From positions 3,570 through 67,569 of the forward strand of contig CANJQT010000001.1 of NCBI GenBank assembly GCA_947476475.1: a DNA stretch of 64,000 nt, read 5' to 3'. Position 1 is the first letter of the stretch, and every line of letters starts with the position of its first letter. A program made the position numbers and the translations under genes. This DNA comes from Paracoccaceae bacterium (GTDB lineage: Bacteria; Pseudomonadota; Alphaproteobacteria; Rhodobacterales; Rhodobacteraceae). This document shows positions 40,118 through 49,108 of this stretch, piece after piece. The notes beneath the pieces were generated by a model. The model had not been told where the DNA came from. It searched no databases and saw nothing but the letters and a program-made list of their open reading frames with translations.

Positions 40118-40193
<76 letters not shown>

Positions 40194-43500: not shown

Positions 43501-44020
43501 GGGTGTAACCTTGGCCCTGCCCGGTGAAATCGGCATAGACTTCGAAGACATGGCCCACGTCCACGATAATCAGGAAGGGCGGCCAGCCGTCGGCACGGGA
43601 AACCGCGCGGGCGTATCCGTCGGCCTGATTGCGGGCGCGCAGCATGGTGTCATCCCACCGCCGCGTGCCCCGTGCCCCATGACCCTTGCGGGTGGCGTTG
43701 GGCAGATCGGGCAGAAGGGTGGGTTGGGCATCATCGGCGGGCTGCGTGCCGCCCGTGCCTTGCTTGGCTTCCATGACGAAATGACCCGCGCGGTAAAGGT
43801 CGATGAAACCCCGCGTTTGAGCGTTGGTGTGAATGAAGGTCACGGGATGTTCAAAGCAATAGGAATTGGCGCGGGCGGCCTCAGTCGCGGGGGAGGGTCT
43901 GGGTAAACCCAGCACGTCGCAAAGTTCACTTGCGAAGGTCTGGAAGTTGGCGCGTTCGCTGCCACCAGAGGTCTGCCATCTTTGGATAAACTCTTCGACC
44001 TGCAAATTCCCGCCCGCCAT
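40547..44020 (-). CDS. MmeI-like Type IIL/IIG single-polypeptide restriction-modification enzyme (nuclease, m6A MTase, TRD)
   Basis: N-terminal FIDLY...MEAKQG PD-(D/E)xK nuclease, FNGGLF spacer, LDPACGSGNFL motif I, IVGNPPF motif IV, FDPFPFP after the TRD; 1157 aa, uninterrupted. Confidence 0.9.
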   Translation of the reverse strand: MAGGNLQVEEFIQRWQTSGGSERANFQTFASELCDVLGLPRPSPATEAARANSYCFEHPVTFIHTNAQTRGFIDLYRAGHFVMEAKQGTGGTQPADDAQPTLLPDLPNATRKGHGARGTRRWDDTMLRARNQADGYARAVSRADGWPPFLIIVDVGHVFEVYADFTGQGQGYTQFPDGNRYRITMEDLRDEKTRERLRLIWTDPQALDPSKIAAEVTREVADRLAALGRSFEGQGHEPEAVARFLMRCLFTMFAEDVDLIPRDSFSGLLKSLRGHPEHAAPSLKSLWETMNTGGFSAILTTDLKRFNGGLFRDADALPLTNVQLSLLIEAASRDWREVEPSIFGTLLERALDKKQRHKLGAHYTPRAYVERLVVPTVIEPLRADWGDVQAAAVALAAQGREDEARDTVRAFHAKLCEIRVLDPACGSGNFLYVALELMKRLEGEVTALLADLGEDQAALSLAGHTVDPHQFLGLELNPWAAAVAELVLWIGYLQWHFRTHGKASPAEPVLRDFKNIENRDAVLTWVGTKPRLDGTGKPVTRWDGQTTLTHPVTGEQVPDPQARVQVLEYLKPQPAKWPEAEFIVGNPPFIGLRTIRQSYDDGYLEALRTVYPKVPENADYVMYWWEKAALAARGWKPATDKARAKGTRRFGFITTNSLRQTFNRKVLEPHLSDPKTPLSLIFAIPDHPWVDAGDGAAVRIAMTVAEAGKATGRLGAVADERKGEDEAEGRPVRFVIETGKIYADLRIGADVISAPELKANSGLGCVGYQLTGQGFLVSPFHAEKIAELEPRSQALLKPWIGGIAIQRSADPKTAIDACALSLAELRTNHPLVFQHLMDTVWPERKENNRKSVRENWWVYGEPRNTFRPALSGLQRMIVTSLTSSQRVFVFLASDTVADSTTVLFALDDDVALSVLSSRFHVAWALSAGGTLEDRPRYNKSLCFDPFPFPDPTEAHKARLRSLGEQLDAHRKAQQTTHPKLTLTAMYNVLEKLRAGERIEGKDKEIYDQGLIGILRDLHDQIDAAVAEAYGWPADLTDDEILHRLVDLNRERAAEEARGRVRWLRPDYQNPAGRTVTKGEQTAMDIGPAETTAKALWPKTLPDQIAAVRATLTGLGTATPEQVARHFQRGRAASVQPLLESLAALGQARLVEGGRFAV

Positions 44021-44141
44021 ATCTATGCCGGTTCACTCTTGCACCTGTAGTTTCGTGAACGGAAGAGGCTTTGGCGGATTGAGAGTTAGTTCCCGGCCTC
44101 AGCTTGCGATTGTGTGCCAGGGTTGCGCAGATCGGCCCCTG

Positions 44142-44300
44142 TTATTTGCGCCGCAATAGTCGTCTTTGTCGCGCAGCCCTCTTGCGGCACCCTTCGCAGC
44201 AATAGTTCGCGTCAACGCGCCGAAAGCAGGGAATGGCTTCGCAGCACCACAGGCACCGCCAGCCACCGCGCACCGCCCTGTGCAGCAGAAACGGGCGCAT
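44142..44300 (-). CDS. Small Cys-rich Zn-ribbon-like protein (52 aa)
   Basis: MRPFLLHRAVRGGWRCLWCCEAIPCFRRVDANYCCEGCRKRAARQRRLLRRK: CxxC...YCxxxCR pattern with a basic tail. Below the ORF-track cutoff. Confidence 0.55.
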   Translation of the reverse strand: MRPFLLHRAVRGGWRCLWCCEAIPCFRRVDANYCCEGCRKRAARQRRLLRRK

Positions 44301-44856
44301 GTTACGCCTGAGAACAGTGGCTGATCAGGCGCAACCAGCTCCTGTAACGGCTGAAAACAACGGAAAGGTGAAGGCCGGATACGCCTTCTGTCAGAGATAC
44401 GCGCGCGTAATGGTCGCGGGGGGAGGTAGGAAAGTCTCTGGCGCTATGACCGCAGGGACCGCTTGGGAAGCCATCTCATAACGCTAACACAGGTTTTCCT
44501 CGCGCGCGTAATGGTCGCCGGGGGGGCTGAATCCCTACTTCAACAAACCCAAGGACCGACGTTCCTCTTCGCCTGGCATAAATCGCGACAAAAAAGGTTG
44601 GGGCTTGGGTCTGGCGTCTGAGGGGCGAATGGACGACGCCGTAAATACGGGCGTTATCGGCCTAAACAATCAAGAGATTCAACTTTTTCCGCCGCCGCCT
44701 GTTTCCGCCTATGCCGCCAGCCGACCAGCGCGGCAGAAACAAGCGCCTGCGACGGCTGAAAACAGCGGCTGATCAGCGCGACCAGCTCCTGCAATCACCC
44801 GCTTTTCAGGATGCAGCCGTTGAAAACAACGTCTGATCAACGGGACCACCAGCGCC
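44256..44856. repeat. Paralogous 80-90-bp segments (44256-44347, 44714-44794) plus a shorter third copy (44817-44856)
   Basis: Shared core TGARAACARYGKCTGATCA...ACCAGC(T)CC, aligned by eye. Confidence 0.7.
44400..44600 (+). other. Two tandem ~101-bp cos-like units, each starting with the exact 18-mer CGCGCGCGTAATGGTCGC
   Basis: The repeats at 44400 and 44501 are directly visible. Each is followed by G6-7...(AAAGTCT or AATCCCT)...GGACCG, the layout I recall from HK97-type cos regions (inference). Confidence 0.45.
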
Positions 44857-44957
44857 AGGATTTGCCACCCCAGAATGGCCTTTCATAGTTGACCGTCACA
44901 CCACCGCGTTCGTCGGTTTAAATCCACACTGCATCTTGAACGGGCGCGGGCATGGCT

Positions 44958-45095
44958 TCACCTTTGACTTTCTGGGGGCGAAAGGCGGGTCAAGCTGTTG
45001 ACCTTACCCGATCCGCGAAACCGGCCCGCCCCGCAACCCGCAGCCTTCCTGCCGATTGCCCGCTGTTTGATGCGCTGTGCCTTATCACTGCCCAT
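44958..45095 (-). CDS. Small basic hypothetical protein (45 aa) downstream of the initiator-like gene
   Basis: MGSDKAQRIKQRAIGRKAAGCGAGRFRGSGKVNSLTRLSPPESQR with a strong SD (AGGAGGT) upstream. Confidence 0.5.
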   Translation of the reverse strand: MGSDKAQRIKQRAIGRKAAGCGAGRFRGSGKVNSLTRLSPPESQR

Positions 45096-45122
45096 GTCGT
45101 CACCTCCTATGAGTGGTAAGTA

Positions 45123-45653
45123 TTAGTGTTCCATTTCAGAACCGAAGCCGGTGCCGAAAGTGGCGCTGACGGGTTCTGTAGCGGACCCAGATCGGGGCCT
45201 TCGGTTCTGTAGCGGACCCATGTCGAGTGGCGACGGTTCCGCTACAGAACCGCATTCTGTTTTTGGCTTCCAATATCGCCAGTCATTTGTTGCAGCCTGA
45301 TTGCCTTTGGCGGTGATTGTGGTTTTGGTCGTCAGCCGCCATTCATGTGCGCGTCGATGATACCAATGGCCGGGGGTGATCAAGACAAGGAAGCCCTTGT
45401 CCTGCAATTCGTCATAGGCGCGCTGGACCGTGGCCTTACCCAAGCCCAGCGCCTCTACCGCCTCGTTCATCGAAAGGCGAACCTGCCCATTATTGCTGCC
45501 GTTGAACCGGGTATGCACTTCGAGAAAGACTTTGACGGCAGCCCCCGAAAGGGACCGAAAAGCCGATGATTTCAGGAAGGCATACGGCATGGGCGCATAT
45601 TGCCCTTCCTCTGGGCGTTTGCCTGTCCGTCCGTTTGATCCGCGTCTAGCCAT
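45123..45653 (-). CDS. HTH-domain protein, putative replication initiator
   Basis: AFRSLSGAAVKVFLE...NNGQVRLSMNEAVEALGLGKATVQRAYDELQDKGFL winged HTH; the 3' end carries iteron-like repeats. Confidence 0.7.
   Translation of the reverse strand: MARRGSNGRTGKRPEEGQYAPMPYAFLKSSAFRSLSGAAVKVFLEVHTRFNGSNNGQVRLSMNEAVEALGLGKATVQRAYDELQDKGFLVLITPGHWYHRRAHEWRLTTKTTITAKGNQAATNDWRYWKPKTECGSVAEPSPLDMGPLQNRRPRSGSATEPVSATFGTGFGSEMEH
45128..45251. repeat. Four iteron-like repeats, consensus GGTTCTG-N4-GGA(A/C)C (putative ori)
   Basis: Copies at 45128-43 (inverted), 45172-89, 45203-20 (exact 18-mer pair) and 45235-51 (inverted). Confidence 0.7.
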
Positions 45654-45783
45654 GCAGGGTCTCCCCATAGGCCAGGAAGGCCACAAGGCGGGCTTGGGGT
45701 TCCGGCAGGCCATGGCGCGACATCAGGCGGCGCACGGGCGCTGGCGGGGGGCTGTGGCGGGTGTTTGAGGCGTTGGCGGTCAT
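45646..45783 (-). CDS. Small hypothetical protein (45 aa), translationally coupled
   Basis: MTANASNTRHSPPPAPVRRLMSRHGLPEPQARLVAFLAYGETLHG; ATGA overlap with the wHTH gene and overlap with the initiator-like gene start. Confidence 0.6.
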   Translation of the reverse strand: MTANASNTRHSPPPAPVRRLMSRHGLPEPQARLVAFLAYGETLHG

Positions 45784-46088
45784 GCTGCCACCTCCACGCT
45801 CAAGGTAACGCGTGTATGCAGCACATAGCGCGCATGATGGCCCGAGAATGCCCCGCCGTGTTCCTCGGTTTTCGTTTCGATGTCCAACCCGTGTTCGTGG
45901 CGCAGATCGAAAATGTAGGCGCTCCACCTCGGGCCGGGGTTATCAATAGGGGTGCAGCCTTTCGGCCCTGCCACCATCAGGCATTCCAATGCCCATCGGT
46001 CGCGCCCCTGCACGATAATCGTTCGCACTGTGCCGTCGCTTTGGTGGACGGCGAACCGGGCTTTGCCCCAGCGTCTTGTTATGTGCAT
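45780..46088 (-). CDS. Winged-helix-like DNA-binding protein
   Basis: GRDRWALECLMVAGPKGCTPIDNPGPRWSAYIFDLRHEHGLDIET...HGGAFSGHHARYVL. Confidence 0.7.
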   Translation of the reverse strand: MHITRRWGKARFAVHQSDGTVRTIIVQGRDRWALECLMVAGPKGCTPIDNPGPRWSAYIFDLRHEHGLDIETKTEEHGGAFSGHHARYVLHTRVTLSVEVAA

Positions 46089-46199
46089 ATGCTCATGCCT
46101 TTTGCGGCCTTGAGCAAACGCGGCTGATGCCCTAAACTCATCGTGCAACCGAATGAGATTAAAGCCGTCGCGCGTTCGCTCGTGCGGCGGTTTCTCATT

Positions 46200-46379
46200 T
46201 CAAGCACCTGCACGGCTGGCGAGCCAATCGGTGATTTTGCTTTCCGGCCATGCAACGGCCTTGCCTGTCAATCTTACCGGGCGCGGAAACAGGCCCTTGG
46301 CCATAAGGTCATAAATTGTGCTACGAGCTAGACCCGTCAGGTTTTCAACCGCCGCGCGGCGCAGGTGTCTATCTGCCAT
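46200..46379 (-). CDS. alpA: AlpA family regulator/excisionase
   Basis: LRRAAVENLTGLARSTIYDLMAKGLFPRPVRLTGKAVAWPESKITDWL. The frame is open upstream to an ATG at 46562 with a GGAGGT SD. Confidence 0.9.
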   Translation of the reverse strand: MADRHLRRAAVENLTGLARSTIYDLMAKGLFPRPVRLTGKAVAWPESKITDWLASRAGA

Positions 46380-46578
46380 CTTCATTTCCTTTTTCACGAT
46401 TGGTTTCATTGCAAAGCCTGTCAGCCGGAACGCGCCGTTGCCTTGATCGCCAACTGCATCGCGTCCAGCCGTTTGTGACTGCCTCACCCGGTTGCCCCGG
46501 GGCACTTCCTGCGCTTTTCCGGTGCTAAGCACCGTGACTTTCTTCGGGACTTTTTGTCCCATTCCACACCTCCAAAAC

Positions 46579-46613
46579 AAAAAAACCGCCAGAGCCTTTC
46601 GGCACATGGCGGT
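46579..46613 (-). terminator. Intrinsic terminator upstream of alpA
   Basis: ACCGCCA-(inner GCC-GAAA-GGC stem-loop)-TGGCGGT followed by a U-tract on the minus strand. Confidence 0.75.
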
Positions 46614-46702
46614 CCGCCCACCCGAGGATGAGCATCGCTATTTTCGAAAAGGAATCCGAGGGTTTGGCTTACCGCCCCCGCAGACACACATTTCCACCAA
46701 GC

Positions 46703-46731
46703 AAGATAGTTCTCTTTATGTTCTCCGTCAA
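46703..46731 (-). promoter_or_regulatory. Sigma70 promoter TTGACG-N17-TATCTT with an alphaproteobacterial LexA box (GAAC-N7-GAAC) in its spacer
   Basis: -35 at 46726-31, -10 at 46703-08; + strand GTTC-TCTTTAT-GTTC at 46709-46723. Confidence 0.8.
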
Positions 46732-46776
46732 GCCCAGTTGTTCCGTGCAGTGCCGCGCTGGAGGAAGATGGTTTCG

Positions 46777-47976
46777 TTATACAGTTAAAACAATTACTTG
46801 ATTGCGCTCTTGGGCCACAAACGCCGCCCAAGCCTCCATCATCTTGCGCCGTTTCTCAAACACATCACTCCGCGCATAGGCACGTTCCACCGAATCGCCG
46901 GTCAGATGGGCCAAGGCGGCTTCGGCCACTTCGCGCGGATAATTCGTGCGTTCTTGCGCCCATGTGCGGAAAGACGTGCGGAAGCCGTGAATGTCCGCCG
47001 CAAACCCCAGTTCCTTCACCAGCTTGGATAGCGTCATATCGGATAGCGGGCGGCCTTGCTTGGTGCCGGGGAATGCAAACCCGGTGCCATCACCCAGCGC
47101 CCGTGCATCGGCCAATATTTCCAGCGCGCGGAGGGAAAGCGGAACGCGGTGCGGGCGCTTCATCTTCATGCGCGCGGCAGGGATTTCCCAGACTTTGGCG
47201 GTCAGGTCAATTTCATCCCATACCGCTTCCCGCACTTCGCCGGATCGGGTGGCGGTCAGCACCAAAAACTCTATCGCCAGCTTGGTCGCCTGACCGGCCC
47301 CTGATGCTTTCACCGTTTCAAGGCAGCCCGCAACGTCCGCATAGGGCAGCGCCTTCCTGTGTGCCTGCCGCTTGGCGGTCTTGGGCAAAGCCTGTGCAAT
47401 GTTCTCTGCCGGGTTATCCTGCCGCCATCCTTGGGCGATGGCCCATTTCAACACGGTCCCAATGCGCTGGCGCACCCGTCGCGCGGTTTCGGCCTTTTCC
47501 GTCCAGATCGGGGACAGAACGGCCAGCACGTCTGCGGTGTTCACGTCCGTCACCTTCAACCGGGCCAGCTTCGGGAAAGCGTAGTTTTCCAATGAGGTGA
47601 TAAAATCCTGCGCGTGTTTGGGGCTGCGCCATGTCGGCTTGTGCAGTTCATGCACCTTTCGCGCAGCTTCCTCGAACGTCAGGACCGCCAAAGCCTCGCG
47701 TCGGGCTTGCAGCGGGTCGCCACCCGCGCGCGCCAGCTTGCGGTTTTCAAGGGCCACTGCGCGCGCCTCTGCGAGCGATACAAGCGAAGGCGAGCCTAAC
47801 CCAAGTTCGCTTCGCTTGCCCCGGATGATGATGCGCTGCACCCAGAACCGTGAACCGTTCGCGTCAACCCGCAGATAAAGGCCATGCCCGTCGAAATACT
47901 TCCCCGGCCCGGTCGCGTTCTTCACGGCCTGCGCGGTCAGCGCTTTTTCGGGCGTCCGGTTTAAATGCTGGGCCAT
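46777..47976 (-). CDS. int: P4-like tyrosine integrase with N-terminal arm-binding domain
   Basis: DGHGLYLRV...LGLGS.SLVSLAEAR arm domain; catalytic R (TATRSGE), HGFR, H (ALAH) and Y (ERAY) present. Confidence 0.95.
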   Translation of the reverse strand: MAQHLNRTPEKALTAQAVKNATGPGKYFDGHGLYLRVDANGSRFWVQRIIIRGKRSELGLGSPSLVSLAEARAVALENRKLARAGGDPLQARREALAVLTFEEAARKVHELHKPTWRSPKHAQDFITSLENYAFPKLARLKVTDVNTADVLAVLSPIWTEKAETARRVRQRIGTVLKWAIAQGWRQDNPAENIAQALPKTAKRQAHRKALPYADVAGCLETVKASGAGQATKLAIEFLVLTATRSGEVREAVWDEIDLTAKVWEIPAARMKMKRPHRVPLSLRALEILADARALGDGTGFAFPGTKQGRPLSDMTLSKLVKELGFAADIHGFRTSFRTWAQERTNYPREVAEAALAHLTGDSVERAYARSDVFEKRRKMMEAWAAFVAQERNQVIVLTV

Positions 47977-47978
47977 TT

Positions 47979-48013
47979 CTTCCCCCAATCCTTCCCCCAA
48001 TAAATGGGGGAAG
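47979..48013. promoter_or_regulatory. Integrase arm-type sites, right arm (CTTCCCCCAA x2 plus inverted TGGGGGAAG)
   Basis: 47979-88, 47991-48000 and inverted 48005-13, directly upstream of int. Confidence 0.7.
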
Positions 48014-48119
48014 TGAACGGACTATGGCGGAACATGGCGGCTATGGGAAGGGGTTATTTATTTGTAATTATGAGATAAAATGGAATGCACGGGAATGCCT
48101 TGGAACAGAAAATGGCAGA

Positions 48120-48135
48120 CCTCTGCTCCACCAAA
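48120..48135 (+). repeat. att core, displaced tRNA 3' fragment CCTCTGCTCCACCAAA
   Basis: Identical to 40180-40195. Confidence 0.92.
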
Positions 48136-48163
48136 TCCCTGAAATCGCGAACTTGTCGGCGGG

Positions 48164-49108
48164 TCAGAAACCGCGCCAGCCCCGAACTTTGGTGTAAAGG
48201 CTGGGCATGTAGCTGAAGGCCAGTAGGATTGCTGCCCGTTTCGGGGTTGCGCGCGCTTTCAACAGCACGTGCAGGTAACGCCGCGCCAGTCGCGGGCGGT
48301 TGGCAAGGATCAGGAAGGCGGCTGCGTTGCCGTAGTGTTTGGCCAGATCTTGCGTGCTGTGACCCGCGCGCCGCAGCTTGCCGGTGATGTAGACATAGCT
48401 TTGCCGGGACAGGCGAGTGTCGTGCGAGATATGGTCGTTGCCATCCGCGCGGCGGGGCTTGTAGCTGAAGATGTAAAGCGGCTGGGGGATGAAGCCGAAG
48501 TTGCCCTGCTGGGTCAGGCGCAGGGTGAAATCCCAGTCAACATTGTTGCGCAGCCGTTCGTCGAAGCGGCCGGCGGCGAGGACTGCGTCGCGGCGTAAAA
48601 GCATGGTGGGCATGTCGATGAAATTGCCTTGCAGGGTCGCCCGAAACAGATCGCCGCTCAGCGGGGTGCGGTGGACGGGTGGCAAGGTGCGGGCATCCGC
48701 CAGAGCGCGTTCCGCCTCTGACGTATCGGTATGGGCGACAGAGGCGGTGTAGACGCCGATCAGATCGGGACTGTCCTGCAAGACACGCATCTGACGTTCG
48801 AACCGGTCGAACAGGCTGACATCGTCGCTGTCATGGAAGGCAACGAAATCACCCTTCACCGCATCAAGGCCGGTGTTGCGCGCCGCGGCCGCGCCGCCGT
48901 TTTGGGCACGCCGCACGACGCGGATCCGCGGATCGTTGAGGCTGGCCATCGCGGCGGCAATATCCTCGGTCGAACAATCGTCAGCCACTATGATGTCGAG
49001 GTTCCGGTAGCTTTGTGCGCAGATGGAACCGACAGCCCGCTTGAGTTTTTCGGTCCGATTGTAGACCGGTACAATGACACTTATCAAAGGCTGATTGTTC
49101 ACGCTCAC
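48164..49108 (-). CDS. Glycosyltransferase family 2
   Basis: LISVIVPVYNR, VADDCSTED, GAAAARNTG, FHDSDD, DWDFTLRL. GTG start is inferred. Confidence 0.9.
   Translation of the reverse strand: MSVNNQPLISVIVPVYNRTEKLKRAVGSICAQSYRNLDIIVADDCSTEDIAAAMASLNDPRIRVVRRAQNGGAAAARNTGLDAVKGDFVAFHDSDDVSLFDRFERQMRVLQDSPDLIGVYTASVAHTDTSEAERALADARTLPPVHRTPLSGDLFRATLQGNFIDMPTMLLRRDAVLAAGRFDERLRNNVDWDFTLRLTQQGNFGFIPQPLYIFSYKPRRADGNDHISHDTRLSRQSYVYITGKLRRAGHSTQDLAKHYGNAAAFLILANRPRLARRYLHVLLKARATPKRAAILLAFSYMPSLYTKVRGWRGF

Follow-up and report, generated by a model that had tools for sequence, protein, structure and literature searches.

In related satellites, AlpA-type proteins are the trigger by which an integrated, silent island is excised and begins to replicate, and how this trigger is restrained and then let go has yet to be answered for PICI- and PICMI-like elements. 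In both Gram-negative PICIs and the PICMIs of Vibrio, excision requires AlpA expression, which by itself is enough to bring it about (PMC6092414; PMC10803314); int is constitutive in related satellites, where AlpA is a sufficient excision trigger, and a primase/replicase gene is mandatory in the PICMI model (PMC10803314). Transcription from the phage lambda promoter PR' terminates at tR', giving the short 6S RNA, except when Q has been loaded at PR'. Small RNAs of the DapZ/MicL 3'-UTR type have their own promoter after a coding region and share the terminator of the parental gene. In P. aeruginosa, the terminator of the PalpB-tB unit is read through by AlpA(PA0907) (PMC7969949; PMC9371919). 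In the immunity of satellite P4 (PLE leader, CI RNA, seqA/seqC), transcription of the early genes stops prematurely in the leader (PMC10111431), and the sgaDC promoter of SGI1 is repressed by host LexA (PMC9927553).

Here we describe the segment between int and alpA of an integrative island in a 64,000-nt stretch of DNA (the window, to which all plain coordinates refer). A putative host-repressor site and a terminated, structurally conserved leader stand before alpA, and the terminated leader recurs in three diverged islands, whose hosts are marine and freshwater Paracoccaceae.

The island and its genes

The island is 7.9 kb long and ends at tRNA-Ala(cgc) (40118-40193) and at a direct repeat of the tRNA 3' end (about 48113-48131). 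The minus strand carries every island gene, in the order int, a 400-nt gap, alpA, HTH_91, an O-like initiator, a repeat-rich stretch and, last, an MmeI-type restriction-modification gene of 1157 aa. The genes next to the leader are:

46777-48000, minus strand: tyrosine integrase gene (int) with P4-type arm, central and catalytic domains (Pfam Arm-DNA-bind_3, Phage_int_M, Phage_integrase; PHROG 1)
46200-46379, minus strand: alpA (PF05930), excisionase/regulator, first gene behind the terminator (Pfam 1.1e-18; PHROG 2790; PDB 8c3t)
45780-46148 (or 46088), minus strand: HTH_91 winged-helix gene (Pfam), part of the putatively gated operon
45123-45713 (or 45668), minus strand: O-like replication initiator gene (Pfam), part of the same operon

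The rest of the operon behind alpA (45123-46148, minus strand) belongs to PHROGs 678 and 345, replication initiation O-like. No primase or replicase gene was found between alpA and the MmeI-type gene, where only HTH_91, the O-like initiator and ORFs of fewer than 100 aa are located. As in PICIs and PICMIs, int and alpA are co-oriented at one island end. Because int lies directly upstream of the leader and reads in the same direction, int transcripts would also meet the leader terminator.

In many loci of close integrase relatives (L numbers), a gene overlapping the int stop codon (…GTGAGGATTGGnTAATG…) was observed: L002, L005-L007, L009, L010, L012, L014, L015, L018, L037 and L044. It resembles the "integrase-overlapping gene" of Vibrio PICMIs, and is absent from the window and from the two leader-bearing relatives described below.

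Promoter, leader RNA and terminator

An earlier reading made from the sequence alone (hereafter the sequence-only reading) had proposed a promoter-to-terminator leader in front of alpA, with a transcription start near 46696 and an intrinsic terminator with an inner GAAA loop. All of these features were recovered on the minus strand, and two other islands keep the same arrangement. They are as follows:

46726-46731, minus strand: -35 hexamer TTGACG (consensus scan)
46709-46723, minus strand: LexA box GAACATAAAGAGAAC, a perfect GAAC-N7-GAAC filling the promoter spacer (sequence motif)
46703-46708, minus strand: -10 hexamer TATCTT, with a 17-nt spacer to the -35 hexamer (consensus scan)
46646-46694, minus strand: hairpin H1, long and imperfect (RNAfold), whose basal part shows compensatory changes across the three homologues
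46616-46633, minus strand: hairpin H2, whose 3' arm ends in a conserved GGGUG (RNAfold), found in each of the three homologues, though the stem sequences differ
46579-46614, minus strand: intrinsic terminator, consisting of hairpin H3 (46614-46584), a T7 run (46585-46579) and GTTTT

The hexamers, spanning 46731-46703, predict a start site at about 46695-46697, in agreement with the start proposed earlier. This promoter is the sole sigma70-like match of the consensus scan in 45000-48500, and the match alone is not significant (1 found and 1.4 expected from shuffles). The RNA predicted from about 46696 is about 115 nt long and folds into three hairpins in the order H1-H2-H3 (RNAfold). H3 has a 9-bp outer stem (ACCGCCA / TGGCGG) and a 3-bp inner stem (GCC-GAAA-GGC). 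The energy of H3 alone is -20.4 kcal/mol, which was reached by 2 of 200 shuffles, and a separate terminator scan gave -19.3 kcal/mol and flagged the site as strong. By its predicted fold, a G+C-rich hairpin with a U-tract immediately behind it, H3 is a canonical intrinsic terminator. Strong terminator-like sites occur in this genome at 0.14 per kb per strand, thus about 0.06 would be expected in the int-alpA gap, and a terminator there is not expected by chance.

Other parts of the sequence-only reading fared less well. It had pointed to a CCTCGG motif occurring twice in the leader, and both copies are there (46661-46656 and 46627-46622); two copies of a hexamer in 118 nt are at the chance level for repeated hexamers, and a role of the repeats as operators or pairing sites was rejected since neither copy is conserved in the homologues. 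RNA refolding, proposed as a way to allow read-through, found no support, with the terminator fold favored by 14-29 kcal/mol over the best alternative folds. A built-in antiterminator was rejected as well because, with the 3' arm withheld, only weak alternative helices form, and these are not the same from one member to the next. The analogy drawn with P4 immunity does not hold as homology. In Rfam 15 (E<=10 in the window at 44000-49000, E<=5 in L268 and L263), no C4/CI, riboswitch, leader, put or EAR family was matched, and the only hits returned were at chance level in other places or came from miRNA models matching the hairpin. In a crude complementarity test, the leader did not form better duplexes with int RNA or with the RNA downstream than its shuffled versions did. 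The H1 region at 46646-46675 (minus strand), followed by UUCCUUUU, also scored as a weak terminator-like site (-12 kcal/mol), one that is not conserved in the homologues.

Homologous leaders in two other islands

Two homologues of the leader came to light on inspection of alpA upstream regions, one in L003 (Frigidibacter sp. RF13) and the other in L268 (Actibacterium pelagium JN33), each placed after int and before alpA. Their integrases are 84% and 55% identical, respectively, to that of the window. The three promoters share the -35 columns (TTGACG in the window, TTGCCA in Actibacterium, TTTCAG in RF13), the -10 columns (TATCTT, TATCTT and CATATT, in the same order) and the 17-nt spacing. The sequence-only reading had named structural conservation, to be judged by a covariance model, as a point on which its proposal would depend; the same three hairpins in the same order, together with the terminator, are indeed common to the window, RF13 and Actibacterium, the three known members. 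The fold of the Actibacterium leader has a z of -4.9 against shuffles. The terminators of the window, L003 and L268 are homologous, include an A-U to G-C compensatory pair, and range in strength from -19 to -32 kcal/mol. In the consensus structure, 88.6% of the pair cells are standard-paired vs. 40-50% with slid partners, and 10 pairs are compensatory with both sides changed vs. 0-3 in slid controls, covariation evidence that is weak because there are three sequences only and the structure was derived from those same sequences.

Between L003 and L268, the leader is 65% identical and its terminator block 83%, as compared to 58% for the Int proteins, 60% for HTH_91 and 68% for AlpA, which makes the RNA element at least as constrained as the neighboring genes. 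These identities, together with the pairing above, are taken as a sign of selection on the leader RNA. The window leader is 46-48% identical to the other two. As judged by alignment and predicted fold, the leader is a small homologous family of three members. In RF13 as well as in Actibacterium, 17-20 nt lie between the end of the T-run and the alpA ATG, and they contain nothing but a Shine-Dalgarno (SD) sequence (AAAGGAGG). A separate alpA promoter cannot fit into this gap, thus alpA in these islands would be reached only by read-through.

The backbones of the window and RF13 islands share about 76% DNA identity, yet 46824-46265 of the window is not alignable with L003 4177-4555. The non-alignable stretch runs from the end of int across the leader into alpA, of which it covers the 5' half. 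This block suggests that the leader and the DNA-reading half of alpA move together as one mosaic cassette, which fits a cis-regulatory link between them. The RF13 cassette is closer to that of Actibacterium than to that of the window, and resembles a swapped regulatory cassette.

The leader is rare. DNA similarity to it was absent from 60 related genomes, 80 integrase-related loci, and plasmid and phage collections. A search with its covariance model covered 16 genomes of the genus, 401 of the family and 401 of the class, and detected these three members and no others; as six candidates per genome were scored in the two large runs, more distant members could have escaped. The incidence of the family is thus given as 3 of about 800 sampled alphaproteobacterial genomes. 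A strict leader pattern matched only RF13 and Actibacterium, plus chance hits, among 185,579 species genomes, and had no matches in viral contigs, while the generic pattern GGCGGNNTTTTTGTTTTGGA returned only unrelated terminators and one in-gene coding motif from 185k genomes. A metagenome scan with peptide patterns from the HTH_91 alignment, which were poor patterns, gave one irrelevant match, and four metagenomic contigs encoding close AlpA relatives are all without the leader. A strong terminator within 400 nt upstream of alpA was found in 4 of 67 distinct regions, i.e., the three leader members and the unrelated L014, which is about the genomic background. A terminator before alpA is therefore a trait of the leader family and not of alpA islands generally.

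Other arrangements were observed upstream of alpA in further islands. Arrays of a near-palindromic repeat, AAACCGCYTAAGCGGTT, lie 100-250 nt upstream of alpA, after the upstream gene, in L009, L012, L014 and L015; these arrays are probably operator sites of a regulatory module different from that of the window. L097 and L099, another island type, have in common a GGCCCC...GGGGCC hairpin without a U-tract about 150 nt upstream of alpA.

LexA boxes

The direct repeat GTTC-N7-GTTC, or GAAC-N7-GAAC, is the alphaproteobacterial LexA motif (PMC3323433). GAAC-N7-GAAC occurs 148 times in this genome, and about 96 copies are expected from composition. A box of the GAACA type is located about 100 nt upstream of recA (C29:38197), two are immediately upstream of lexA (C103:4372 and 4383), and further GAAC-N7-GAAC boxes front a uvrD-like helicase gene and a radical-SAM repair gene. 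On this motif evidence, GAAC-N7-GAAC is the host genome's own SOS box type. Outside the window, a LexA-type box was also seen about 35 nt upstream of three paralogous genes of 96-98 aa (MEDTAFALPATPKQIAYARSLALKNQ...; C63:14556, C100:7459 and C132:1236), and an ORF neighboring the C132 paralogue may be related to a mobile element.

A box inside the spacer of a predicted core promoter was found in the window only. The RF13 box (GAACTTTATAGGAAC) lies upstream of the -35 hexamer, at about -58 to -44, abutting the int stop codon and outside the spacer. In the three-way alignment, the Actibacterium leader has no LexA box, and the promoter spacers of the window, RF13 and Actibacterium have no motif in common. 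LexA control is outside the conserved core because the Actibacterium copy is without the box. The SOS wiring thus seems to be an add-on, placed twice, to a conserved promoter-leader-terminator core. The sequence-only reading had described the leader as a second gate after LexA; the window promoter does have a host-type box, and the first of the two gates is not part of what the family has conserved.

Boxes of the GTTC-N7-GTTC or GAAC-N7-GAAC form with A+T-rich spacers were also observed 50-400 nt upstream of alpA in L012, L032, L085, L099 and L264, and the one in L099 is beside a CTTGAC -35. In unrelated alphaproteobacterial islands, such boxes lie upstream of alpA at about 7 of 61 loci, with about 1 expected. 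SOS wiring of alpA, as read from these motifs, may be recurrent across alphaproteobacterial islands.

The alpA start and a possible N-terminal extension

The canonical alpA start at 46379 has its own SD, AAAGGA. Two further features lie between it and the T-run:

46560-46573, minus strand: SD GGAGG (46573-46569) and ATG (46562) directly after the T-run, aligned with the alpA start of both homologues
46380-46562, minus strand: window-specific, stop-free segment of 183 nt that separates the leader from the canonical alpA start

ATG 46562 opens a 61-codon extension in frame with alpA (ORF 46200-46607), and the extended AlpA would be 120 aa long with a low-complexity N-terminus. It was claimed earlier that the terminator comes before any ORF, which holds only in part, given this good SD and in-frame ATG. 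No homologue of the extension was found in this genome or among 5.8 billion proteins, and neither leader homologue carries it. Its GC content by codon position (0.62/0.44/0.61) is coding-like, and does not settle coding vs. UTR. The 183-nt segment may thus be either a private N-terminal extension or a 5'-UTR. A weak promoter-like site, CTGACA-17-AATCGT, was read by eye inside the segment, and such a possible promoter of alpA's own would make the gate irrelevant in the window.

The island AlpA is 59 aa long, and its sole PDB relative is a 73-aa AlpA-family protein (8c3t). The AlpA of P. aeruginosa, an antiterminator, is much longer, has a 21Q-like fold and contacts DNA through residues 128-142. 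The possibility that the island AlpA is an antiterminator of that type was rejected, as the two belong to different protein families and share only the name.

Possible functions of the leader

On balance, we lean toward the leader being a cis-acting transcriptional attenuator for the activation operon (alpA, HTH_91 and the O-like initiator). A sigma70-type promoter just past int would make the structured leader of about 115 nt with H1 and H2, and the strong terminator immediately before the alpA ribosome-binding site would stop most polymerases, whether they come from the leader promoter or from int. Transcripts would mostly end at 46579-46585 and release a short RNA, and AlpA would be made by the read-through fraction only. 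The terminator would in this way hold the excision/replication switch low and shield alpA from int transcription. In the window, LexA in the promoter spacer would be the first lock, and appreciable AlpA would need SOS derepression and then a leak through the terminator. It is inferred from the sequence that the promoter is active, where transcription starts, that LexA binds, that transcripts terminate in vivo and how large a fraction reads through. Since the same layout is kept in two related islands, the leader probably throttles alpA; that AlpA suffices for excision in related satellites means that tight control of alpA would make sense. Nothing that would make the terminator conditional was found by Rfam, complementarity, alternative folds or the relationship of AlpA. 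Furthermore, H1 and H2 are conserved though a plain attenuator needs neither, which hints at a further function. As a bare terminator leaves this conservation unexplained, it keeps antitermination and a trans-acting sRNA alive as explanations.

A conditional antitermination switch in the style of lambda PR'-tR'/Q, a specific form of what the sequence-only reading proposed, is rather unlikely. The promoter, constitutively or after SOS, would yield the short RNA alone until a factor from a helper phage, a plasmid or the island's own HTH_91 or O-like genes loads at the promoter or at the H1/H2 RNA and renders polymerase resistant to the terminator, resulting in two-key logic or, if the factor is island-encoded, in positive feedback. 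Besides the conservation of H1 and H2 beyond the needs of a bare terminator, the strength of the terminator (-19 to -32 kcal/mol) counts for such a switch, since the basal leak may be small, as does the still unanswered question of how alpA in satellites is turned on by helpers (PMC10803314). A promoter followed by a terminator would also pass only factor-modified polymerase and stop int read-through. However, no candidate antiterminator was identified, the island AlpA is of the PF05930 excisionase type rather than 21Q-like, the three promoter spacers share no DNA element, and no Rfam match to put or other antitermination RNAs was obtained. It is correspondingly doubtful that AlpA, excision and replication need two keys, i.e., SOS derepression and an override of the terminator by phage, plasmid or island. 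The other explanation in which H1 and H2 would have a role, a stand-alone sRNA of about 115 nt and of the 3'-UTR type, is unlikely. It would have its own promoter, share the int terminator, act in trans on host or phage RNA and be SOS-induced in Frigidibacter, with any effect on alpA being secondary. The element has the standard anatomy of an sRNA, in which a promoter is followed by a folded body and by a terminator hairpin ending in a long U tail, a short RNA must arise if promoter and terminator both work, and the sequence is conserved above the flanking genes. Nevertheless, the three members have no conserved single-stranded seed in common, with the window only 46-48% identical to the others, complementarity to targets within the island is not above shuffled controls, and the element is extremely rare. 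The leader also co-segregates with the alpA 5' end as one cassette, suggesting a cis role.

Two further explanations would dispense with a dedicated leader function or add a ribosome to it. That H3 is an ordinary int terminator, with promoter- and LexA-like matches that are fortuitous or inconsequential, is improbable. H3 is the first terminator downstream of int, the promoter match alone is within shuffle expectation, and terminators upstream of alpA across islands occur at the background rate, all as this explanation would have it. It is at odds with the hexamer position and 17-nt spacing kept in three diverged islands, and with a perfect LexA box located exactly in the spacer, with a second box in RF13 (chance about 0.003 per 100 nt, composition-based); alpA in the homologues would, moreover, have no promoter at all. 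Very improbable is translation-coupled attenuation, in which a ribosome ending a leader ORF would occlude the 5' arm of the terminator and so allow read-through. A small ORF is present in all three leaders, and in L003 and L268 it ends at the TGA of a conserved GGGTGA, 2-4 nt before the terminator stem. Yet the window ORF (MCVCGGGKPNPRIPFRK) has its stop codon at 46641-46639, which leaves about 25 nt to the stem, and no start codon is preceded by an SD at the proper distance. Covariation is seen in the RNA pairs but the peptide sequences show no conservation, and open frames of 20-30 codons are expected by chance.

The window leader is predicted to control a mobile island that carries an MmeI-type restriction-modification (phage-defense) gene. 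If read-through is conditional, the leader would represent a new coupling of island mobility to DNA damage and a second signal, and a true two-key switch would be an undescribed activation logic for alphaproteobacterial satellites and mobilizable islands as well as a new leader RNA family. If the terminator is merely leaky, then it would be an ordinary expression damper of local interest only.

Comparison with known systems

The island resembles PICIs and PICMIs in its left end, where int is followed by a co-oriented alpA, and alpA is the controlled step in those satellites. Unlike them, the window island is without primase or packaging genes and has no known helper; no LexA box or terminated leader has been described for PICI/PICMI satellites. 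With the sgaDC promoter of SGI1, the window shares the wiring of activation genes to host SOS through a LexA site in the promoter. The host class, the LexA motif and the genes differ, no terminated leader has been described for SGI1, and in the leader family the LexA box is present in 2 of 3 members only and at different positions.

In its layout of a promoter, a short terminated RNA and then an operon, the locus is like lambda PR'-tR', and also like PalpB-tB of P. aeruginosa, where the upstream signal is likewise DNA damage. In contrast to both, no Q- or 21Q-like protein is linked to the leader, AlpA having been compared, and the spacers contain no common binding element; factor-dependent read-through of the leader terminator is hypothetical. 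The short RNA, arising from a promoter just past a coding region and ending at the terminator of the upstream gene, is reminiscent of DapZ and MicL. Unlike in these sRNAs, a gene lies directly behind the terminator and would depend on read-through, and no target in trans is indicated.

Finally, the island and satellite P4 are both mobile elements with a P4-type integrase and an alpA/vis-type gene. They differ in that the leader has no C4/CI homology and its transcript no complementary repeat pair. In the island, where the leader is upstream of alpA, a plain intrinsic terminator would do what RNA-RNA pairing does in P4.
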